From positions 320,001 through 384,000 of the forward strand of contig JAOZGC010000002.1 in assembly GCA_027491915.1 (NCBI GenBank): 64,000 nt of DNA, read 5' to 3'. The position numbers were made by a program, and so were the translations under genes. Positions 4,191 to 44,565 of this stretch are shown one piece after another (position 1 is the stretch's first letter; each line of letters opens with the position of its first letter). Source of the stretch: Thermoproteota archaeon. GTDB taxonomy: Archaea; Korarchaeota; Korarchaeia; Korarchaeales; Korarchaeaceae. Below the pieces are notes generated by a model. It was not told the DNA's origin and searched no databases. It saw only the letters and a program-made list of their open reading frames with translations.

Positions 4191-5663
4191 ATGGATCTCT
4201 CCGTGGAGCTGGGCGCCTACGTGGACACGGGGGAGCCCTGCCTCCTCGAGGTCTCCGAGCTCGTGACCGGAAGGACGGCGGTGGTGGCCAAGACGGGGTA
4301 CGGGAAGTCGTGGACCATGAGGAGGGTGGCGGAGGGCCTCTTGGAGCTGGGCCTCCCGGTGGGCGTCATAGACCCCGAGGGGGAGCACGTGAGCCTGGCC
4401 GACTCCTACGACATGCTGGTCATATCGCCCGAGGGCGACCTGGACCTGGCGAGGGGGGGATCCCCGGAGAGGCTGGCGAGGGCCGCCCTGAGCGGGGTCA
4501 GCTTCGTCCTGGACCTGTCCGGGTACTCGGCCGATCCGAAGACCGCGGCAGAGGTGACCTCCAGCTTGCTCAGGTCCCTAATGGACCAGAGGGGAGAGGG
4601 GTTCCTGGTCATGATAGACGAGGCCAGGGAGCTGGCCCCCGAGAGGAACGCCAGGAGCATCCTCGGGAAGTACGCGTCCGAGACCGCGGTCTGGGTCAAC
4701 TCCCTGGCCACCAGGGGTAGGAAGAGGGGCATAGGCCTGCTGTTCACTACCCAGCGGCCGCAGCTGGTCTCGAAGACCCTACTGAGTCAGGCGGAGAACA
4801 AGATCCTACTCAGGGTGGAGTACAACGCGGACCTGAGCGTGATGGCCAGGTTCCTCGGGCTCGACAGGGAGCTGATGGGGAGGATCAGGAGACTCGAGAG
4901 GGGGGAGGCATACGTCGAGGGGCCCTTCGTCGGTAGGCCGGGCCTCGTCAAGGTCGGGGGCGTGAAGACGGCTCACCTCGGTACGACCCCGAGCGTCAAG
5001 CCCAGGCCGCCCCCGAGCCTGGCGGACGTGGTTGCCTACGTGACGGCCGGGCCGCCATCCCTCCCCTCAGAGTCGGAGGGGAGGGAGGTGGGGAAGGGCG
5101 GGGATGGTGGTAAAGGCGTAGGAGGGAGACGGTCGGGGAGGGTGATTCGGGACCGCGAGGCCGTCGGAACCCTTGATCTGAGGCTGGAGTCGGCCTGGAG
5201 CATGCCCAGCGAGAGGCTGACCTCGGGGGACCTGGAAGATCTGGTGAGGGCGAGGGACGAGGTGGAGAGGATGCTGGGGATGCTCGAGGAGTCCAAGGGG
5301 GAGATGCGGGCCGAGGTCTACGAGTTCCTCAGGGGCGAGTACGAGAGGTCCCTCGAGGAGCTGGAGAGGGCCATATCCCCGTACAGGAGGGAGGCCATCG
5401 TCTCGGAGCTCGTGCTGGAGGCCGCCCTGAAGGACAGGGAGATGAGGATCAGGTACCTGAGGGAGACCAGGTCGGGGATCATCGGGAGGATCAGGGCCTG
5501 GAGGGAGATCCGCAGGATGGAGGCCGAGATGGGGGATCTGTCCGACAGGCTGGCCAGGGTGAGGGAGATCCTGGCCCGCGTCGGCCGGCTCCCGCGGGGG
5601 GCGGCCGGGATGGATGGCGCCGGCGCCCGGGAGGGGACCGGCGCGGCCCGGGGGGGTCATTAG
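4191..5663 (+). CDS. HerA/FtsK-like (DUF87) P-loop ATPase with C-terminal coiled coil
   Basis: AKTGYGKS Walker A, IDPEGEH, MIDEA Walker B, RGRKRGIG, TQRP motifs. Confidence 0.85.
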   Translation: MDLSVELGAYVDTGEPCLLEVSELVTGRTAVVAKTGYGKSWTMRRVAEGLLELGLPVGVIDPEGEHVSLADSYDMLVISPEGDLDLARGGSPERLARAALSGVSFVLDLSGYSADPKTAAEVTSSLLRSLMDQRGEGFLVMIDEARELAPERNARSILGKYASETAVWVNSLATRGRKRGIGLLFTTQRPQLVSKTLLSQAENKILLRVEYNADLSVMARFLGLDRELMGRIRRLERGEAYVEGPFVGRPGLVKVGGVKTAHLGTTPSVKPRPPPSLADVVAYVTAGPPSLPSESEGREVGKGGDGGKGVGGRRSGRVIRDREAVGTLDLRLESAWSMPSERLTSGDLEDLVRARDEVERMLGMLEESKGEMRAEVYEFLRGEYERSLEELERAISPYRREAIVSELVLEAALKDREMRIRYLRETRSGIIGRIRAWREIRRMEAEMGDLSDRLARVREILARVGRLPRGAAGMDGAGAREGTGAARGGH

Positions 5664-5695
5664 GGTGGGGGGTAGGCCAGCCGCCCGGTCCCCCG

Positions 5696-6328
5696 TCAGA
5701 CGCCGGACACCCAACCGAGCACGGCCGACCTCAGCATCTCAGCCGCCATTCCGGCTATTATCAGGGCCATGAACCTGCCCAGGGCCCTCGTCCCGTTCCT
5801 GCCGAGCAGCACCACCATCCTCGTGGAGTACCTCAGCAGGACGTACGTGGCGGCCGCGGCCGCGGCGACGGCCGAGAGGAGGGCCGCCTCTCCCTGAACC
5901 CTCCCGCCGAGCTGGGTCTCCAGCGAGGTCGAGAGGACCACCACCGTGGTGATCGTCCCGGGGCCGACCAGCAGCGGGGTGGCCAGGGGAACCACGGCTA
6001 TGTCCTCCCTCTCCACCTCCCTGGTCCTGGCCACCCCCTTGAGCATGTCCAGGGCGAGCACCGTGAGGAGGATCCCCCCTCCGAACTCCAGGTCGGCCAC
6101 GCTCACCCCAACCAGGCCGAGGAACTCCTCGCCCACGAGGGCGAAGGCGCAGCTTATCGCCAGCACCGACGCGGCCGCCCTCCTGACCACCCTGACCCTC
6201 TCCCCCTCGGACATCCCTTCCGTCAGCTCCAGGAACGTCGGGACGACGCTGATCGGGTTCAATATGGCGAACAGCTGCACGGTCGAGGTGACCACGGCCC
6301 AGGCGAAGTCGGCAGGGGGTGTAGGCAT
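5696..6328 (-). CDS. marC: MarC family membrane protein
   Basis: LFAILNP, GGILL, AVVPLATPLLVGPGTIT motifs. Confidence 0.9.
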   Translation of the reverse strand: MPTPPADFAWAVVTSTVQLFAILNPISVVPTFLELTEGMSEGERVRVVRRAAASVLAISCAFALVGEEFLGLVGVSVADLEFGGGILLTVLALDMLKGVARTREVEREDIAVVPLATPLLVGPGTITTVVVLSTSLETQLGGRVQGEAALLSAVAAAAAATYVLLRYSTRMVVLLGRNGTRALGRFMALIIAGMAAEMLRSAVLGWVSGV

Positions 6329-6374
6329 GGGGCCGCCGGGTCGCGGACCCGATATTTAACGGAATCGCCGGGCG

Positions 6375-8288
6375 TCACATCCTCTCCAGCCTCGGTATCC
6401 CGATCAGGTCCATGGCCGAGCCCAGGGCCCCCCTGACCGCGTCTACCAGAGCGAGCCTGGCGGCCTCGACCCCGCCCCCGGAGCCGAGCACCCTGTGGGT
6501 CTCGTAGTACCTGTTGAAGGCGGCGGCCAGGTCGGACGCGTATTGGGCCAGCAGGTCGGGCCTCATCAGATCGGCGGACGACCTGACGACCGACGGGAAC
6601 TCGGCCACCCTCATCAGCAGGTCCTCCTCGGCCTCGGACTTCAGCTCTCCGGGGTCGAAGTCCCCGGGGACGCCGCCGGCCCTCCTCAGTATGCCGCCGG
6701 CCCTGGTGTAGGCGTACTGGATGAAGGGGCCCGAGTTGGCCTGGAGGTTGAGGACCCTGTCCCAGCTGAAAGTCACGTTCTTTGAGGGGTCCACGCTGAC
6801 GAGGGCGTACCTGACCGCCCCGACGGCGACGGCCTCGGCTATATCCTCGGCTTCGACCTCCCCCTTCCTCCCCCCGAGGATCTCCATGACCCTCTTCTTG
6901 GCCTCGTCAAGTATCTCGTCAACGGTCACGTATCTCCCGAGCCTGCCTGCCATCTTGGCCCCGACCAGCTCGACCATCTCGTAGCTGAAGTGGATGAGCC
7001 TGTCGGGATCGTGGCCGCAGAGGGCCAGCCCCGCCCTGACCTGCATCTGCTCCAGCCTCTGCTCGCTCCCTATCACGTTGTACACCACGTCGGCCCCGAC
7101 CGCCTCCAGCTTGTAGACCGAGTACCCCACGTCGGTCCCCGTGTAGAGCCACGTACCGTCGGACCTCTGGAGGTAGAACCTGGCCGGCACGACGTCGGCC
7201 AACTTCCCCTCCCTCTCCAGCCTCTCCAGGTCCCCCTCTCCAAGGTGGAACGCCCTCCTGACATCCTCCCTCTCCCTTATGGCCCTCCACATGTTCACGT
7301 ACGCGGCCTCCCCGTCCCTCTCCAGGTACCCGGCCTCTCCTATCCTCCTGGCCGCCTCCTCGACCCACCCGTTCCATATCAGGTCGCTCTCCCAGTCGTA
7401 GGCGTCGTGAGAGACGCCCAGCCTGGCCAGGGTCTCCACGAAACCCTCCATCACCGACTCGGAGACTTCGCGAAAGAGGGCTTTCGCGTCCGGGCGGCCC
7501 TCCTGGTACCCCCTCATGAGGGACGTCAGCTCCGACTCAGGGTCGTCGTCCCCCAGGATCGAGGAGTAGACCTCCTCCACGACCTCCCCTCCCCTCCTCC
7601 TCAGGTCCACGAGGGCCTCCTCCAGCTCCCTCCTCCTGTCCTCCGGGAGGTCTTCCCTCCTCATCTCGAAGGCTATGTTCGCGGCGGCGTAGATGAGGCC
7701 GTACCAGTGATCCGGCTTCCCCCTGGGACGAGCCCTCCTCACCTTGGATCTCCCGTACGCCAGCACGGCGGGCTGCCTCCCGGAGTCGTTCACCAGGTAC
7801 CTGGCGCTGACCTCGTGGCCGAGGAACCTCAGTATCCTCGCGTAGGAATCCCCGAGGATCGCGTTCCTGCCGCTGCCCACGTGGAGGGGGTGGACCGGGT
7901 TCACGCTGGTGTGCTCCACGACGACGGTCTTACCGGTCGGGTCCCCCCTCCCCAACTCCCCCGATCTGGCCGACCCTATCACCTCGGAGAAGAACTCCCT
8001 CAGGTCGAGCGTCAGGTTGACGAACCCGCCCGACGGGGTTACCTCGACGGCCATGGGTATCATGTCGACCTCGATCCTGGAGGCGAGGTCCGCCGCCACG
8101 GCGGGCGGGGGGGCGCCGACGGCCCCGGCCAGCTTGAACGGGAGCGGGCTCCCGAGGTGACCGGGTTTCCCCCTCGGGACCCTCTCAACTCTTATCCAAC
8201 CTGGGTCGACCTCGACCCCGGACGCCGAGGCCGCCGCGGCCAGCTGCTCGGAGAAGGCCCTCCTCACCTCCCCCAGCGGATCCCTCAT
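6375..8288 (-). CDS. argS: Arginine--tRNA ligase
   Basis: EHTSVNP..PLHVG HIGH-like motif, KMAGR, GPFIQYAYTR, DALR anticodon domain, ERM C-terminus. Confidence 0.95.
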   Translation of the reverse strand: MRDPLGEVRRAFSEQLAAAASASGVEVDPGWIRVERVPRGKPGHLGSPLPFKLAGAVGAPPPAVAADLASRIEVDMIPMAVEVTPSGGFVNLTLDLREFFSEVIGSARSGELGRGDPTGKTVVVEHTSVNPVHPLHVGSGRNAILGDSYARILRFLGHEVSARYLVNDSGRQPAVLAYGRSKVRRARPRGKPDHWYGLIYAAANIAFEMRREDLPEDRRRELEEALVDLRRRGGEVVEEVYSSILGDDDPESELTSLMRGYQEGRPDAKALFREVSESVMEGFVETLARLGVSHDAYDWESDLIWNGWVEEAARRIGEAGYLERDGEAAYVNMWRAIREREDVRRAFHLGEGDLERLEREGKLADVVPARFYLQRSDGTWLYTGTDVGYSVYKLEAVGADVVYNVIGSEQRLEQMQVRAGLALCGHDPDRLIHFSYEMVELVGAKMAGRLGRYVTVDEILDEAKKRVMEILGGRKGEVEAEDIAEAVAVGAVRYALVSVDPSKNVTFSWDRVLNLQANSGPFIQYAYTRAGGILRRAGGVPGDFDPGELKSEAEEDLLMRVAEFPSVVRSSADLMRPDLLAQYASDLAAAFNRYYETHRVLGSGGGVEAARLALVDAVRGALGSAMDLIGIPRLERM

Positions 8289-8309: not shown

Positions 8310-8807
8310 TCAAGATAAAAGTCGGCGCCTCCCCCTTATCCCGTCGACCAGGACGGAGAAGGGGACGACGACGTTGATCCCCTCCTTGGCCGACGTCTCG
8401 ACGTAGCCCAGCATCCCCTCCCTCTCCGCGAATCCCTCGGCGGCCTCGCGATCCACCCTCCTCCCGAGGTCCACCTTGTTACCCACCAGGACCGCCGGAT
8501 GCCCGTCCCCAAGCTCCCTCCTGGCGATCCCCACCCAACCCTCGAGGGCGTCCAGGGTGGCTGGCCTGGTCAGATCGAACACGTACAGCACCCCGGACGC
8601 CCCCCTGAGGGCTATGGGGGCGAAGAACCTGAACCTCTCCTCTCCCCCCACGTCCCACACGATCACCCTCTCCCCTCCCAATTCCATCGCGTGGAAGTCG
8701 GCCCCGACGGTCATGCCAGCCCCTCCAGCCTTCCCGGCCGCAGCCCTGGCGAGGGCGGTCTTCCCCACCCCTCCCTCCCCGCAGAGGACCACCTTCAACC
8801 TGCCCAA
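8310..8807 (-). CDS. Rab-like small GTPase
   Basis: G1 GEGGVGKT, G2 TVGADF, G3 WDVGG, G4 NKVD, G5 ETSAK. Confidence 0.92.
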   Translation of the reverse strand: MGRLKVVLCGEGGVGKTALARAAAGKAGGAGMTVGADFHAMELGGERVIVWDVGGEERFRFFAPIALRGASGVLYVFDLTRPATLDALEGWVGIARRELGDGHPAVLVGNKVDLGRRVDREAAEGFAEREGMLGYVETSAKEGINVVVPFSVLVDGIRGRRRLLS

Positions 8808-8810
8808 CGC

Positions 8811-9470
8811 TCAGTCCCCGAAGTACTTCTCGTGCAGCTCCCTGGACGCGTCCATGCTCACGTCCGCGAACAGCTCAGGGAAGTCCTCCACCACCCTCTC
8901 CCTCGGAGTCTGCTTCGGCACGGCCACCAGCGTCAGCTCGCAGTACTCGTCCCCGGCGGCCAGGCAGGCCGTCTCCCTGACCACCGTGTAGTACCTGGTC
9001 TCTCCGGGGGCCAGGCTCATGTAGGTGTTCGAGGCCCCCTCGTAGGCCCCGGTGGGGTAGTAACAGATCTTGTCCCCGGTCTCTATCTCGGAGGCCCATG
9101 GGGATCTCCTGTCCCTGAACCTCACTATTATGTAGTTCCCGCCGACCGCCCTCCTCTCCTCAGACTCCGCCTCCGGGTCCCTGCCGGAGAACATGTACCA
9201 GGCCGCCCTACCTATCACCCGTATGACCTTCTGGCTCGGGGGATAGCGGGCTATGTCCCTCCCCCCGAGCTTCAGCAGGTAGGCGTGCCCCATGGCATAA
9301 CCCCACTCGAATATCCTCAGGTTGGCCTTCTCCCGCCCCAGAAAGTCCCTCATCTCCGTCACGGTCATGAGGTACAGCCTGTTCAGCGTGAACGTGTCTA
9401 CGGTGGTTGCGCCGAACCTCTTCCTCATCTTGAGGACGAACATGCTCAGGCTCTCCGGAGGAGCCGACAA
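8811..9470 (-). CDS. V4R (4-vinyl reductase/Bet3-like fold) domain protein
   Basis: GYAMG helix, KIC...ETACLAAGDEYCE V4R Zn motif; TTG start at 9470 after GGAGGTGG (alternative ATG 9515). Confidence 0.75.
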   Translation of the reverse strand: MSAPPESLSMFVLKMRKRFGATTVDTFTLNRLYLMTVTEMRDFLGREKANLRIFEWGYAMGHAYLLKLGGRDIARYPPSQKVIRVIGRAAWYMFSGRDPEAESEERRAVGGNYIIVRFRDRRSPWASEIETGDKICYYPTGAYEGASNTYMSLAPGETRYYTVVRETACLAAGDEYCELTLVAVPKQTPRERVVEDFPELFADVSMDASRELHEKYFGD

Positions 9471-9539
9471 GACATGACCACCTCCCTCTCCTCGCCCACG
9501 CCGACACGCGGACATGTCCCGGAGTCGCCGGGACCTCCC

Positions 9540-9959
9540 TCAGACACCCACCCTCACCTCCTTCAGGTATCCCCCAGCCCTGAGCCTCTCGGCCATTATC
9601 CTGGCCCTCCCGACCGGAATCCCGAGCAGGGCTGCTATCTCCCTTATCGTCCTCTCTCCGTCGCACAGGGCCAGGAACCGCCACTCCTGCTCGCTCAGGG
9701 CCGATATGTCCGGGCGCCCCCCGCCGGGGACCGGCACCTCCCTTATCCTCGCCATCAGGTCTCCCCCGACCTCCGAAACGCGCGCCGACTCGACGGACCT
9801 GACCTTGCCGTCAGGATCTACGTAGGCTATCATGGCGTGGTCTCCGTGATTTATCACGACGGCCGTCACCCCGGACGGGGAGGAAGAAGCCCTCCTCACC
9901 GTCTCCTCGTCCGGCTTCAGGTCCTCCACCCTCCCGCAGACCGGGCACCTGACCCTCAA
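9540..9959 (-). CDS. Zn-ribbon protein with C-terminal winged HTH
   Basis: CPVC...HGDH.....VDPDGKVRS; C-terminal LALCDGERTIREIAALL wHTH. Confidence 0.7.
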   Translation of the reverse strand: MRVRCPVCGRVEDLKPDEETVRRASSSPSGVTAVVINHGDHAMIAYVDPDGKVRSVESARVSEVGGDLMARIREVPVPGGGRPDISALSEQEWRFLALCDGERTIREIAALLGIPVGRARIMAERLRAGGYLKEVRVGV

Positions 9960-11218
9960 GCTCTGAACCTCCCCCTGCTCGGATCGAAGTGGGGGTCCGA
10001 GATCCCGCCGACCAGCCGGATGGCCGGACCGGGGGCGACCCTGAGAGCCCTCAGGATCTTCCTCTTTGGGAGCACGCGGAACATCTCCCTGACCAACTCC
10101 GAGTAACCCCTCCTCGTGTATATCAGATCGAGCAGCAGCCTCCCCATGTCGTCATCCTCTGCGGCGAAACGGAGCAAGTCGTCCAGGAACCTCAGGTCGC
10201 TGAACAGGAGATCCCTCATCTCCCTGCCGACGGCGATGTTCACCCCGAGATCTTCCTCCCCCTCGCACCTCCTCTGGTACTCGGCCAGGCCCTCCTCGCT
10301 GGGCTCGCCCTCCTCCAGGACCTCCCTGAGGACGTCGGAGGCCAGCTCCGCCGATTTGATGGCCCCCCTCACCCCCTCCCCGGTCAGCGCGTTCACGAAC
10401 CCCCCGGCGTCCCCGACCAGTAGAGTCCTCTCGGAGTACAGCCTGCCCAGGATCCCGTTGTACGGAATGTACGATCCGAGGATCTCCCCGCCGCCGGTCC
10501 GCGCGGCCCGGGCGAGCAGGCCGGACCTCCCCTCCTCCAAGAACCTCCTGAGCTCCTCCGTCGGGAGCGAGCCGTAGTTCTCCACAAGCGCCCCTATCCC
10601 GACGTTCAGGTGGTCGGAGTGCCTGAACACCCAGGCGTACCCGGCCCCGGCCAGTCCCATGTGAAACTCGTGGGCGGCCGCGTCCCGGAGATCTCCCCCG
10701 AGGGGAACGTAGGCCACCGGGCAGAAGGCGTTGCCCCTGAACCACCCCCGCGGCCTCAGGCCCAGGGAGGCCGCCACCCTCGACCCGAATCCGTCGGCCC
10801 CCACCACGGCGCGGGCCTCGTACTCCCCCCTCCTGATGATCACCCTGGCCCTCCCCTCCCCCTCGATCACGGCCCTCACGAACTCCCCCTCCCTGAGCTC
10901 TGCCCCCGCCTCGACGGCCAACCTGGCGAGCCAAGAGTCGGTCTGCTCCCGGGGGAGATTGTAGGCCAGGACCGAGTCGGACTCGAGCTCCAGGGAGAAG
11001 CCGGAGGGGGAAACGAAGATGCTCTTCCTCACCTCAACCAGGTCGTCGCTCTCTATTCCGAGCCCCTCGACCACTGGAACGCTCAGCGCCCCCCCGCACA
11101 CCTTCCTTCTCGGGTGCCTCTTGGCCTCCAGGGCCAGGACGTCGAAGCCGTGTTCGCCCAAAATCCGGGCCGCCGTCGATCCAGCCGGTCCGGTGCCGAC
11201 CACAATGACGTCTCTCAT
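9956..11218 (-). CDS. Geranylgeranyl reductase family FAD oxidoreductase
   Basis: VGTGPAGS, KVCGG, VGADG, GYAWVF, LVGDAGGFVNALTGEG. Confidence 0.9.
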   Translation of the reverse strand: MRDVIVVGTGPAGSTAARILGEHGFDVLALEAKRHPRRKVCGGALSVPVVEGLGIESDDLVEVRKSIFVSPSGFSLELESDSVLAYNLPREQTDSWLARLAVEAGAELREGEFVRAVIEGEGRARVIIRRGEYEARAVVGADGFGSRVAASLGLRPRGWFRGNAFCPVAYVPLGGDLRDAAAHEFHMGLAGAGYAWVFRHSDHLNVGIGALVENYGSLPTEELRRFLEEGRSGLLARAARTGGGEILGSYIPYNGILGRLYSERTLLVGDAGGFVNALTGEGVRGAIKSAELASDVLREVLEEGEPSEEGLAEYQRRCEGEEDLGVNIAVGREMRDLLFSDLRFLDDLLRFAAEDDDMGRLLLDLIYTRRGYSELVREMFRVLPKRKILRALRVAPGPAIRLVGGISDPHFDPSRGRFRA

Positions 11219-41309: not shown

Positions 41310-42707
41310 TCACTCCAACATCTCCCTCTCGTACCTCTTGAGGTGCTCCACCGCCCCCTTCAGGTCGCTGAACTTCTCGGCCACCACCCTGACGTCCTCC
41401 TCAGTCACGGCCTCCCTCCCCCCGGCCCTGGCCCTGACCCCGGCGATGCTCAGTATCTGGGTCGCGTACCTGAGGGACCGCTCGGCGCCCAGCTCCCTGA
41501 GGGCCCTCACCGCGCCGTCCTCCAGCTTCACGTCCTCCTCCCTGGCCCTTATCCTGATTATCTGATCTATCTCTTCTGGAGAGTATTTCTCCGTCGTGAT
41601 GACCACGAGCCTGTCCAGGAGGTCCAGGGGCATCCCGAAGGGCGCGGTGAGGTCAGTCCCCCTGATCTTCGTCACCCCCCTGTTGGTGGCCATGACTATT
41701 ATCGGGACGAGCTCACCCTCCATCGCCCTGCTGAGGAAGGAGAGGGCCTCTATGTCCATCAGGTGCACGTCGTCTATGAAGAGGACCCCAGGTATTATCT
41801 CCCCCCTCTTCTCCTCGACCCACTCCTTCACCTGCTTGTCGACGGCCGCCCTGACCTCTGGGTCGATCTCCCTCTCCGGGGGTGCGCCGAAGAAGAGCGA
41901 GAAGAGGGCTCCCCCCCTCCTGGAGGCCACCATCTGATCCAGGTCGTCCAGCGTCATGGTGTAGACGAACTCTCTGTCCTTCAGGACGGCCCCGGTCGGC
42001 CTGGGGACCACCTTCGATCCGGACACGTCGAACCCGGCCGCCCCCTCCGCCCGGCCCATCCTGGAGACCCTCCCTGTCTCGGCGTCTATCATTATGACGT
42101 CGCCCTCGGCCACCCCCTGGTCGGCCAACTGCTGGGCCACCCTGGGGCCGACCCTCAGCTTCTTGCTCTCCTCCTCGGTCTTCAGCTCTATCTCGGCGCT
42201 CTGGGGGGTTCTGACGAACGGATTCAGGGGGCTGCTCCCCATCTTTATGTCCAGCTTGGTCACCTCCCCCTCGTAGACCTTCTTGACCTCCCTGAGCCGG
42301 ACCCCTATGGCCTTCCTCATGGCCTCCGTCAGGACCTCCGTCTTCTTCCTCTCCGCGCTGTACACCTCGGCCCCGCTGATCTGTATGAACGGGACGTCCT
42401 CCCCCAGCTCCCTGGCTATCCCGACGGCCACGGCCGTCTTCCCGGTTCCGGGAGGGCCGGCGAGGAGCACCGCCTTCCCGCTGAGCCTCCCCTCCCTGGC
42501 CATCTGCACCACGAGGCCCGCGGCCTCCCTCGCCCTCTTCTGTCCCACCAGCCCGTCTCCGACGTCCTTAGCCGTCATGTCCGGATTGAGGCCGAGCCCC
42601 CTGATGTGGCTGTGGGCCCCTATCCTCTCAAGCCTGCTCAGGCCGCCGCCTATCTCCTCTATCTCCGGCAACCTCCCACCACTCGGCGGGGGCCCGGTCG
42701 CCGTCAA
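41310..42707 (-). CDS. TIP49/RuvB-like AAA+ ATPase
   Basis: HSHIRGLGL, GPPGTGKT, PGVLFIDDVH, ATNRG, PLDLLDRL, SLRYA. Confidence 0.93.
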   Translation of the reverse strand: MTATGPPPSGGRLPEIEEIGGGLSRLERIGAHSHIRGLGLNPDMTAKDVGDGLVGQKRAREAAGLVVQMAREGRLSGKAVLLAGPPGTGKTAVAVGIARELGEDVPFIQISGAEVYSAERKKTEVLTEAMRKAIGVRLREVKKVYEGEVTKLDIKMGSSPLNPFVRTPQSAEIELKTEEESKKLRVGPRVAQQLADQGVAEGDVIMIDAETGRVSRMGRAEGAAGFDVSGSKVVPRPTGAVLKDREFVYTMTLDDLDQMVASRRGGALFSLFFGAPPEREIDPEVRAAVDKQVKEWVEEKRGEIIPGVLFIDDVHLMDIEALSFLSRAMEGELVPIIVMATNRGVTKIRGTDLTAPFGMPLDLLDRLVVITTEKYSPEEIDQIIRIRAREEDVKLEDGAVRALRELGAERSLRYATQILSIAGVRARAGGREAVTEEDVRVVAEKFSDLKGAVEHLKRYEREMLE

Positions 42708-42712
42708 AAAGA

Positions 42713-43234
42713 TTACCCGTCGGACCCGGAGACGACCTCCTCCAGCGCCCTCCTGAGCTCCTCTATCCCCCTGCCGTCCAGGGCGGAGGTGAATATCACC
42801 CTCTTGGCCCCGAGCTCCGCCGCCTCCGCCTCGGCTTCCTCCCTGCTCACCCTGGTCGGCAGGTCAAGCTTGTTGCCCACGAGTATGATCTCCTTCACCC
42901 CGGCCTCCCGCATGACCTCCGCCCACCTGCCCAGCGAGTACAGGGTGCTCGGGCGGCTCAGGTCGAACACCAGCATCCCGACGGTGGCCCCGCTCACCAG
43001 GCCCCGGTGCAGGTGGAAGAACCTCCTCTGCCCCGCCAGATCGTACACTATGAGCTCCTTTCCCTCCCCCTCCAGCACGAAGAAGTCGACTCCTATGGTC
43101 ATCGACGAGCCGCCGACGCTGAACCGGTCGGTCAGCCTCCTGCATATGGTTGTCTTGCCGACCCCGCCCTCCCCCCCGACGGCCACCTTCCTCCTGACCC
43201 TCGCCAACCTCCCCCCGGTGGACTTCATCTCCAA
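42713..43234 (-). CDS. Rab-like small GTPase
   Basis: G1 GEGGVGKT, TIGVDF, YDLAGQ.RF, NKLD, TSA. Confidence 0.92.
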   Translation of the reverse strand: MEMKSTGGRLARVRRKVAVGGEGGVGKTTICRRLTDRFSVGGSSMTIGVDFFVLEGEGKELIVYDLAGQRRFFHLHRGLVSGATVGMLVFDLSRPSTLYSLGRWAEVMREAGVKEIILVGNKLDLPTRVSREEAEAEAAELGAKRVIFTSALDGRGIEELRRALEEVVSGSDG

Positions 43235-44199
43235 GCCCTCGCCATGAACATGGGCCCCCTACCCTCTACCTTGTACCTGAGGCCGGACGCCCTCAGCCAC
43301 TTGTCCACGTCGGACCTCCTCGGCGAGATGTCTGACCCCATGAGGTAGGTGGCCAGGGAGTAGCCCCTCATTATCGGGTCGTCCCAGACGCTCTGGAGTA
43401 TTCCTATGTATCCCCTCTCCCTCCCCCTTCCCCCCGGGGCCAGCACGGAGGCCGCGTTCTTCAGCAGGAGTATGGGGTCCCTGATCCAGTTCAACTTCTC
43501 TGCCACGACCGCCAGGTGGATCACCGAGTGGCCGGCTGAGCTCACGGCCTGCCTGACCCTCTCCGGGGCGGACCTGATGAAGGATATGTTGTCCCTCAGC
43601 AGCCCCTGGGCGTTGAGCCTCTCCCTGGCCAGGTCCAGCATGTCCTGGGACGGGTCGACGGCCACGACGGCCGCCTCGGTCTCCATGGCTATGATCCCGG
43701 TCACCACGCCCATGTGGAATGAGAGGTCCGCCACCACCGCCCCCCTCGGGATGCTGGAGAGCCCCAGCCTCCTGAGCCCCTCGAGGAGCATCATCTTCAG
43801 GAACCTGCTGTCCATGAACCTGTAGAAGAGGGCCCTGTTCTCCGGGGAAGAGACGTGAAAGGGCCTCTTGCCATCCTTGACCGCCTCGTAGAGCCTGGAG
43901 AACACCTTGGAGGGGACCACCATGAAGTCCTCCACGTCGTCCCCAACGACCGGCGGGACCTCGGGCCTCTTGGCCGTCCTGTAGACCTTCGTCCCGGCCA
44001 GGTATATGTAGCCCCAGTCGTGGAGGGCCTCCAGGAGGTAGTTCAGGAGCTTTCTGTCCCCGAACTCCTGGGAGAGGGCGGACAGCTCCCTGCCCTCTAT
44101 CTCCTCGAAGAATCCGGCCTCCTCCAGGGGCCCTACGATCGCCCCCTGGAGCCTGAGCTCCAGGTGCTGGAGGGCCTCCCTAGGGATAACCGACGACAA
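43225..44199 (-). CDS. wHTH + class I SAM methyltransferase-fold protein (degenerate motif I)
   Basis: VVADLSFHMG, AVDPS.DML..AR, L.PGG; N-terminal HTH-like region. Confidence 0.65.
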   Translation of the reverse strand: MSSVIPREALQHLELRLQGAIVGPLEEAGFFEEIEGRELSALSQEFGDRKLLNYLLEALHDWGYIYLAGTKVYRTAKRPEVPPVVGDDVEDFMVVPSKVFSRLYEAVKDGKRPFHVSSPENRALFYRFMDSRFLKMMLLEGLRRLGLSSIPRGAVVADLSFHMGVVTGIIAMETEAAVVAVDPSQDMLDLARERLNAQGLLRDNISFIRSAPERVRQAVSSAGHSVIHLAVVAEKLNWIRDPILLLKNAASVLAPGGRGRERGYIGILQSVWDDPIMRGYSLATYLMGSDISPRRSDVDKWLRASGLRYKVEGRGPMFMARAWR

Positions 44200-44202
44200 G
44201 AC

Positions 44203-44565
44203 TCACTCCACCTCCTCATACCTGACTATCCCCAATCTCAGGAGAACCCGGACCGCCGCCTCGTCCTCCTCGCTCGGCGGGATCGTCCCGTCGAGCACCA
44301 GGCGTATCCTGTCGACGTCTATCCAGGTTGGGGCCAGATCATCCATCCCGGGAACGAACCTCAGCCTCGCACCCCTCTCGGCGAGCTTGGTCCCGTGCAC
44401 CTCCCTCACGTTCCCCCGCCCGTCGACGAACACGGTCACCCCGTGATCCACGTCGCATAGTACGAAATTCCACCCTGGGGAGGGTGATACGTCGTGCCTC
44501 TTGCCGCATATAGGGCAGGTTACCAGCACCAAACCCCCGGACCTCTGGCGATTGGCTCTCCCCAT
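44203..44565 (-). CDS. Zn-ribbon protein, paralog of 9540-9959
   Basis: TCPICG...C..DH...VFVDGRGNVR; C-terminal LDG...L.RLGIV. Confidence 0.65.
   Translation of the reverse strand: MGRANRQRSGGLVLVTCPICGKRHDVSPSPGWNFVLCDVDHGVTVFVDGRGNVREVHGTKLAERGARLRFVPGMDDLAPTWIDVDRIRLVLDGTIPPSEEDEAAVRVLLRLGIVRYEEVE

Follow-up and report, generated by a model that had tools for sequence, protein, structure and literature searches.

In a wide discussion of the origin of eukaryotic trafficking and signalling switches, archaeal Ras/Rab-like GTPases are put forward as their forerunners. In the conservon, the available part of the literature describes MfpC, a DUF742 winged-helix protein, as the guanine nucleotide exchange factor (GEF) and MfpD, a Roadblock protein, as the GTPase-activating protein (GAP) of the GTPase MfpB (PMC11343762). 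SAMTOR is described as a non-catalytic S-adenosylmethionine (SAM) sensor of methyltransferase fold, which feeds small GTPases that work with Roadblock-domain proteins (PMC10883374). V4R is regarded as the relative of TRAPPC3/Bet3 in prokaryotes (PMC2253512, PMC10933270), and TRAPP complexes are reported to be Rab exchange factors (PMC10152722); GTPases are not mentioned in the accessible part of the V4R/Bet3 paper (PMC2253512). Group 2 Rup GTPases were reported from Crenarchaeota only and, in the portion of that study at hand, without conserved neighbours (Wuichet and Sogaard-Andersen 2014, PMC4316618). Rab-like proteins were listed in two Thermofilum species, with no context analysis in the pages accessible to us (Surkont and Pereira-Leal, PMC4915359), and in the Asgard archaeon MK-D1 the GTPase genes are said to lie generally outside operons with Roadblock, longin, or TRAPPC3 genes (PMC10933270), which makes GAPs and GEFs hard to assign. 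Here we analysed a stretch of 64,000 nucleotides (nt; hereafter the window) from a Thermoproteota archaeon placed by GTDB in the Korarchaeota (NCBI GenBank assembly GCA_027491915.1, contig JAOZGC010000002.1, positions 320,001 to 384,000 of the forward strand). At 42713–44565 it carries a cassette of three genes (cassette 2), which encode a Zn-ribbon protein (Zn2), a methyltransferase-like (MT-like) protein, and a Ras/Rab-like small GTPase.

Cassette 2 lies on the minus strand. Its first gene, Zn2 (44203–44565), encodes 120 amino acids (aa), the middle MT-like gene (43225–44199) encodes 324 aa, and the GTPase gene (42713–43234) encodes 173 aa when read from a TTG start, or 171 aa if translation begins at the ATG overlapping the stop of the MT-like gene. 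All three are open reading frames (ORFs), and the last two have Pfam matches. When the junctions were read, the Zn2 stop was separated from the TTG start of the MT-like gene by a 3-nt gap, and the MT-like stop and the GTPase ATG shared an ATGA overlap. Because this spacer and this overlap join the three genes, cassette 2 is predicted to be an operon of translationally coupled genes, and its co-transcription is predicted from the gene packing. The same gene order recurs on the same strand 34.6 kb away in cassette 1, where Zn1, a paralogue of Zn2 (9540–9959, minus strand; 139 aa), is followed by a V4R-like protein (8811–9515, minus strand; 234 aa) and a Ras-like GTPase (8310–8807, minus strand; 165 aa). 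The sequence features quoted for both cassettes in the first-pass annotation of the window were all present at their positions. Profile searches of the source genome (1.12 Mb in four contigs, 91% complete) found only two Zn-family genes and two Ras-like GTPase genes, all in cassettes 1 and 2.

On balance, we lean toward reading cassette 2 as a copy of a switch module that is built on a small GTPase and conserved in archaea, and in which the Zn protein would work with an exchangeable ligand-binding partner. Among heat-loving archaea, the trio recurs in related genomes, and also in Thermoproteota, where its Zn protein is longer and Roadblock/LC7 genes are added. Three features were added to those of the first-pass annotation, namely the winged helix at the C-terminus of each Zn protein, the Roadblock/LC7 genes of the module, and a conserved FAD (flavin adenine dinucleotide) protein upstream of cassette 1.

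The neighbours of the Zn genes were counted with hidden Markov models (HMMs) that we made from the families concerned and with naively called ORFs, the E-values relate to small ORF sets, and the genomes searched were samples of their groups. In the window's phylum, eight of 43 genomes had a match to the Zn profile, with 16 places in all. Directly beside the Zn gene there was an MT-like gene at 10 of these places and a V4R gene at 6, with none having neither, which bears out the proposal of the first-pass annotation that the middle gene is interchangeable. A GTPase gene lay within 3.5 kb at 9 of the 16 places. Orthologous trios of Zn, MT-like, and GTPase genes were present in three loci (L028, L033, and L042), and four loci (L030, L031, L032, and L035) had a Zn gene, two MT-like genes, and a GTPase gene. 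Genus g2 has an orthologue of cassette 2 plus a third cassette with two tandem MT-like genes before the GTPase gene. In the Zn2 subfamily the neighbours were kept in every locus seen. A pattern scan for Zn1-type proteins in species genomes gave eight loci, some of them from Thermofilaceae and from another Thermoproteota lineage; a V4R orthologue followed the Zn gene in all eight, and a GTPase gene came after that in two.

Two loci concern GTPases and V4R genes away from Zn cassettes. In genus g2, the best Ras-family match (L140, G005:C15, ca. 5320–5790) is ca. 11 kb from Zn1-V4R, and tblastn showed neither a Zn nor a V4R nor a Roadblock gene beside it, so that the linkage of a GTPase to cassette 1 is not fixed within the family. 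In genus g4, a further Ras-like GTPase (L141, G043:C36, ca. 5200–6520) lies ca. 600 nt from a V4R-like gene without a Zn gene; the product of this V4R-like gene is 24% identical to that of window positions 30081–30593 (E 7e-7).

In Thermoproteota, the Zn family was found in 24 of 401 sampled genomes, at 36 places. Within 3.5 kb of these places there was a GTPase gene in 17, an MT-like gene in 16, a Roadblock/LC7 gene in 10, and a V4R gene in 4. When the Zn protein had at least 260 aa, a GTPase gene was found within this distance in 12 of 15 cases and an MT-like gene in 13 of 15. The usual order is Roadblock, GTPase, long Zn protein (ca. 265 aa), and MT-like protein, and this block often has a further GTPase gene, of the ATP_bind_1 type, and another Roadblock gene beside it (L110, L111, L123, and L125). 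Each of the super-loci L111, L123, and L125 combines two GTPase genes, a Ras-type one and, on the other strand, one of the ATP_bind_1 type, with a pair of Roadblock genes; Zn proteins and MT-like genes number one or two each. Ahead of the block, L123 and L125 have a short Zn protein (123 aa) and an MT-like protein of 324–330 aa, and this pair is the closest counterpart of cassette 2. The first-pass annotation had also expected homologues of the Zn-ribbon proteins to be enriched beside small GTPases. Such enrichment was found: both Ras-like genes of the source genome are in Zn cassettes, in five Thermoproteota genomes checked the single PF00071 match directly adjoins a Zn gene (5/5), and of 17 Ras-family matches in a further five genomes, 9 sit in Zn cassettes.

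The two Zn-ribbon proteins, which the first-pass annotation had called paralogous, align significantly over their full length (BLASTP E 5e-9, with 34% identity over 74 residues), and the profiles of their subfamilies align with an hhalign probability of 98.6% (E 1.3e-15, 110 columns). Both share a zinc-ribbon (CxxC...(C/H)-x-x-D/G-H) and beta domain at the N-terminus and a winged helix at the C-terminus. Zn1 has the motifs CPVCG...HGDH...YVDPDGKVR. The Zn2 ORF reads ...VTCPICGKRHDV...CDVDHGVTVFVDGRGNVREV and contains CPICG...CDVDH...VFVDGRGNVREV; its Zn-ribbon/beta domain (CxxC...C-x3-H) is followed by a shortened winged helix, which is ca. 10 residues shorter than the complete one of Zn1. The AlphaFold2 model of Zn2 (predicted local distance difference test score [pLDDT] 88, predicted template modelling score [pTM] 0.51) consists of a run of six strands with two helices and a further strand after it.

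Foldseek gave no match of this model in the PDB at E ≤ 1e-3, and a PDB sequence search with the Zn alignment returned zinc-ribbon matches at chance level alone (best E 0.034). Zn2 matched no Pfam family above its cut-off and had no DUF742 match, whereas Zn1 matched DUF742 over residues 81–133 only and just under the cut-off of 27 bits (25.7 bits, E 1.1e-5), and 8 of 20 Zn1-type proteins matched DUF742 at E ≤ 0.01 (best E 1.5e-7). The Zn-ribbon domain is a family without a Pfam model above cut-off and without a solved fold relative. It is also a small family: an HMM of the Zn alignment had 54 matches at E ≤ 1e-3, 17 of them at E ≤ 1e-10, among 1.84 billion representatives. The genomes searched in two other archaeal phylum-level groups had no match to the Zn profile (0/2 and 0/133), and none of the nine searched relatives classed as of the same domain matched at useful E-values. 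In a word-index search, Zn2 found two clusters only and the MT-like protein only itself; the relatives are too distant for such a search, and the genomes were therefore searched with profiles. The best ESM Atlas score was 0.86, which we take as a lead only, and the matches were hypothetical proteins of Thermoproteota of ca. 100 aa. Two metagenome representatives of ca. 265–270 aa from low-GC organisms (P0023 and P0027) have a tandem pair of Zn-ribbon/beta domains and a long helical tail. In L115 (5967–6272) and L117 (6283–6588), 101-aa Zn-only relatives of the N-terminal domain have no GTPase gene near them and are flanked by a HerA-like ATPase gene and a gene of unknown family encoding 303–310 aa.

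The MT-like protein of cassette 2 matched Pfam Methyltransf_25 (34.4 bits; cut-off 27) and Methyltransf_11 (28.9 bits; cut-off 21.2). Its AlphaFold2 model (pLDDT 89.6) has an N-terminal winged helix and a class I (Rossmann-type) methyltransferase fold. Foldseek gave 949 matches of this model at E ≤ 0.001, and nearly all of the matches listed were methyltransferases. Among the top matches were many family-2 O-methyltransferases with full-length alignments (E 9e-12 to 1e-9); enzymes aligned in this way include 3mcz, 4qvg, 8tjk, 2r3s, and 3gwz, with TM-scores of 0.43–0.69. PF00891, the family-2 O-methyltransferase model, did not match the window protein at E ≤ 1 and matched one MT-like relative below its cut-off (E 3.5e-3).

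Motif I of methyltransferases has the glycine-rich consensus loop D/E-x-G-x-G-x-G. The window MT-like protein reads VVADLSFHMGVV (ADLSFHMG) at this position and departs from the consensus by the loss of the glycines, and the acidic residue that ends strand 2 (AVD) is retained. The first-pass annotation had described the middle protein as a degenerate methyltransferase; this description applies in this genome and does not extend to the whole family, since some orthologues keep VVDVGAGIG...AVD. Motif I is intact in few of the 24 aligned members, including those of L125 (574–1566) and L123 (7366–8340; aligned as VVDVGAGIGLS), and ca. 5 of the 24, judged by eye from the alignment, have the canonical glycine loop together with both acidic residues. 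The members with an intact motif reach the Pfam methyltransferase cut-offs. The SAM loop is eroded in varying ways in the window copy, in genus g2, and in most loci with long Zn proteins. Because the glycine loop that holds SAM is lost here and intact in some relatives, the window protein is most likely non-catalytic and would be a scaffold or a degenerate sensor. The role of "sensor or effector" that the first-pass annotation proposed for the middle protein is putative.

Both GTPases matched Pfam Ras (PF00071) well above its cut-off of 21.6 bits (cassette 2, 74.1 bits; cassette 1, 90.6 bits) and are 41% identical to each other over 143 residues (E 7e-24). Ras-superfamily proteins are defined by G1 (GxxxxGK[ST]), a switch I threonine, G3 (DxxG), G4 (NKxD), and G5 (SA). 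The cassette 2 GTPase has all five G motifs (GGEGGVGKT, MTIGVDF, DLAGQ, NKLD, and TSAL), and its G3 motif carries a glutamine of the catalytic type. That of cassette 1 has GEGGVGKT and MTVGADF, and its G3 motif is DVGGE, which has no glutamine. In an alignment of 16 GTPase sequences, G20, G25, K26, T45, D64, G67, N120, K121, and D123 were invariant. The G3 motif was split within the family: DxxGQ occurs in the cassette 2 GTPase and its orthologues, i.e., in korarchaeal-type cassettes with MT-like genes, and DxGGE in the cassette 1 GTPase and in the Thermoproteota GTPases linked to long Zn proteins. This split hints that the two types may differ in their mechanism of hydrolysis. Rab proteins proper carry a C-terminal cysteine prenylation motif. 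The cassette 2 GTPase ends in ...EEVVSGSDG, without a C-terminal cysteine, and its IGVDF-type switch I may resemble the RabF1 motif. In the GTPase tree, the GTPases of cassettes 2 and 3 fell outside the group formed by those of cassette 1 and of the loci with long Zn proteins (support 88/99, drawn open). As the tree has long branches and few starred forks, no claim of co-evolution is drawn from it.

In the mechanism we propose, the Zn protein would be an adaptor that binds the product of its direct neighbour, i.e., the MT-like protein in cassette 2 or the V4R protein in cassette 1. Together with this partner, it would link the GTPase's nucleotide state with a ligand or with a metabolic state, acting as an exchange factor, a GAP platform, or an effector. 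The window MT-like protein would take part as a scaffold or degenerate sensor without catalysis, and the single Roadblock protein of the genome (29636–30070) would be a likely GAP-type partner in trans, possibly for both GTPases. In the Zn family the winged helix is similar to DUF742, to which the mycobacterial GEF MfpC belongs, and by this analogy the Zn protein may have an exchange-factor role. When the MT-like protein, the GTPase, and Zn2 were co-folded as three chains and Zn2 was scored, the median was 0.43 (runs 0.43, 0.51, and 0.41). All three controls gave 0.00, among them one in which the MT-like chain was replaced. The runs agreed in at least 55% of the contacts, and the partner pLDDT was at least 72. 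Of 80 solved complexes used for calibration, 58 reached the mark, as did 2 of 110 mismatched pairs; 7 of the 80 solved complexes and both mismatches reached it with scores of at most 0.60. Co-folding thus lends weak support to a contact of Zn2 that would depend on the MT-like chain.

Several observations weigh against the reading as a switch module. The neighbour counts include the seed loci L070 and L071, which match by construction, and the MT-like call of L114, which overlaps the Zn ORF and is doubtful. No GTPase gene lay within 3.5 kb at 7 of the 16 places in the window's phylum, two of these seven having been examined with 1.5-kb flanks only, or at 19 of the 36 places in Thermoproteota, and genus g2 has Zn1 and V4R without a GTPase. 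At 11 of the 36 places there was no GTPase, MT-like, Roadblock, or V4R gene within 3.5 kb; these were eight Zn-only proteins (at most 107 aa), some of which adjoin a HerA-like ATPase, and three lone Zn1-type genes. The likeness to DUF742 is below the threshold for Zn1 and absent for Zn2, and matches to generic winged-helix families are at least as frequent, so that the GEF analogy rests on context more than on sequence. The co-folding pass is weak and came from a job with three chains, which differs from the calibration, and with alignments made by us. Intact SAM sites in some members of the MT-like family may mean that catalysis is an ancestral, still relevant role. The proposed mechanism is read from members that are known here from genes, sequence comparison, and models.

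The Zn-ribbon/winged-helix proteins might instead be ordinary small transcription factors of their own operons, in which case adjacency would reflect expression control and no complex would be formed. We regard this as rather unlikely. The C-terminal domain of the Zn1 type does match many DNA-binding winged-helix families (among 20 Zn1-type proteins, HTH_47 in 15, TrmB in 10, Sigma70_r4 in 8, and IclR in 6), Zn_ribbon_Brz was matched by 2 of the 20, and three Zn1-type genes stand alone (L106, L107, and L108). However, the Zn2 subfamily is short of ca. 10 helix-turn-helix residues, with two helices and a strand in the model, and has constant neighbours; the contact suggested by co-folding, which needs the MT-like chain, argues weakly in the same direction, and DUF742 proteins, which are winged helices too, are reported to serve as GEFs (PMC11343762). 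A working methyltransferase in the middle of the cassette, matched in cassette 1 by an enzyme system of the FAD protein and V4R, with the GTPase and the Zn protein as accessory factors for assembly or targeting like the GTPases of metallo-enzyme maturation, is an explanation that we consider quite improbable. The members with a canonical loop and both acidic residues, such as that of L125, and their Pfam scores speak for it, as does the reductase-like FAD protein kept beside Zn1-V4R in 9 of 13 loci. On the other hand, the varied erosion of the SAM loop in the window copy, in genus g2, and in most long-Zn loci means that selection has not been on catalysis across the family, and the GTPases are Ras-family switches (PF00071) and not maturation GTPases of the SIMIBI or G3E type.

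That the recurrence stems from a recent local duplication or from chance adjacency without joint function is extremely unlikely. There are just two cassettes in the genome, and the TIP49 gene described below shows that a gene can lie 5 nt away and yet be beside the cassette in none of seven related loci. However, the paralogues are only 34–41% identical, and two phylum-level groups retain the arrangement. The neighbour counts, together with the five genomes in which the sole Ras-family gene adjoins a Zn gene, exclude chance adjacency. The switch module with a Zn protein and an exchangeable partner thus remains the reading that we favour. A wider proposal is that archaea of the korarchaeal type and Thermoproteota hard-wire Rab-like GTPases to partners of the kinds found in eukaryotes (V4R/TRAPPC3-like, Roadblock/LC7, and a SAM-sensor-like methyltransferase fold) through a lineage-specific Zn-ribbon/winged-helix adaptor, as a pre-eukaryotic form of TRAPP-Rab or SAMTOR-Rag-style signalling. 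We put this forward as a speculative and improbable extension; if it were true, the Zn protein would represent an exchange factor or coupling subunit of a new class.

Other genes of the window touch on the two cassettes. Upstream of Zn1, the gene at 9956–11218 (minus strand) encodes a 420-aa FAD-dependent protein resembling geranylgeranyl reductase, with matches to Pfam FAD_binding_3 (E 3.7e-16) and, under its cut-off, to GGR_cat (E 1.4e-4). The end of this gene overlaps the start of Zn1 by 4 nt. Of the 13 loci tested, nine had a homologue beside the Zn1-type gene, one of these being in a Thermofilaceae genome (45% identity), and cassette 1 is probably a four-gene unit including the FAD protein. 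A HerA-like (DUF87) gene lies at 4191–5663, 2.6 kb from cassette 1. Between the cassettes, three close-set genes on the plus strand (28953–30593) encode a B3/4-domain protein, a Roadblock/LC7 protein, and a V4R protein. The Roadblock/LC7 protein (29636–30070, plus strand; 144 aa) is the only protein of the genome that matched PF03259 (64.1 bits, Pfam E 1.7e-17) and lies apart from both cassettes, ca. 13–14 kb from cassette 2. Directly after it, the second V4R protein of the window (30081–30593, plus strand; 170 aa) matched PF02830 above the cut-off (53.3 bits, E 9.7e-14) and has an XylR_N-like N-terminus (XylR_N, E 4.7e-5).

Next to cassette 2, the gene of a TIP49 (RuvB-like) AAA+ ATPase (41310–42707, minus strand) begins 5 nt past the GTPase stop. 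It was considered as a fourth gene of the cassette and was rejected on the count of related loci given above; such proximity without conserved linkage indicates that tight spacing alone is common in this genome. On the upstream side of cassette 2 there is a radical-SAM gene in divergent orientation. The six cassette proteins were also compared with the PADLOC defence models: five had no match and no defence system was found, and the MT-like protein had one weak match, to mad2 (E 9.9e-5), over the methyltransferase core.

In the literature searched, we found no description of a module of Zn-ribbon, methyltransferase-like, and GTPase genes; supplementary tables, such as S2 of PMC4316618, were not covered and may list such neighbours. 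For this reason, we rate the module as an operon of a GTPase with its regulators that is new in its adaptor family and in its partner types. It provides fixed gene-level pairings of a GTPase with a Zn-ribbon/winged-helix protein and with a methyltransferase-fold or V4R protein, often together with Roadblock. As these pairings occur in small genomes with only one or two such GTPases, biochemical tests of cognate and non-cognate combinations are directly feasible. In terms of lineage, the window GTPases resemble the Group 2 Rup GTPases in being Ras-superfamily GTPases of the archaeal TACK lineage without bacterial counterparts, as described in the accessible part of that study (PMC4316618), and are probably the same as or sister to them. 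Unlike what was reported for Group 2 Rup, a conserved neighbourhood was found here.

Two eukaryotic systems are alike in part. The likeness to SAMTOR-GATOR1-Rag/Ragulator is in logic only, and no sequence relationship is claimed; in contrast to SAMTOR, the window MT-like protein has lost part of its SAM loop, and the GTPases are single-domain and Ras-like, not Rag-like. As for TRAPP (Bet3/TRAPPC3) and Rab, the V4R-like gene of cassette 1 lies directly before a Ras/Rab-like GTPase gene; however, the V4R-like protein is under the Pfam V4R cut-off (E 2.5e-4, 21.5 bits against 31), and no longin partner was seen. With its V4R-like gene next to a GTPase gene, this operon departs from what was reported for MK-D1 (PMC10933270). 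MglA/MglB with RomR/RomX is likewise a small Ras-like GTPase encoded with its regulators, in which, according to the sources as far as accessible, the Roadblock protein is the GAP. The cassette is unlike it in having neither MglB nor genes of the RomR/RomX type, and the Zn-ribbon/winged helix, the methyltransferase fold, and V4R are foreign to it.

By analogy, the actinobacterial conservon (CvnA-D/MfpE-B) appears to be the nearest characterised logic for the module, with MglA/MglB as a further relative in logic. The conservon is described, in the parts of the reports available, as an operon of a Ras-like GTPase and a small winged-helix protein in a system with Roadblock/LC7 (PMC11343762, PMC9769811); correspondingly, Zn1-type proteins match DUF742 weakly, and Roadblock genes join the module in Thermoproteota. 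It differs in that the cassettes are without a sensor kinase and the window cassettes without Roadblock, so that the four genes of a conservon do not occur together here. In addition, the winged-helix protein has an N-terminal Zn-ribbon/beta domain outside the DUF742 match, and the window GTPases match Pfam Ras strongly, whereas the second GTPase of the Thermoproteota loci is of a type that matches ATP_bind_1 only. Relative to the conservon, the module described here adds an MT-like or a V4R protein.

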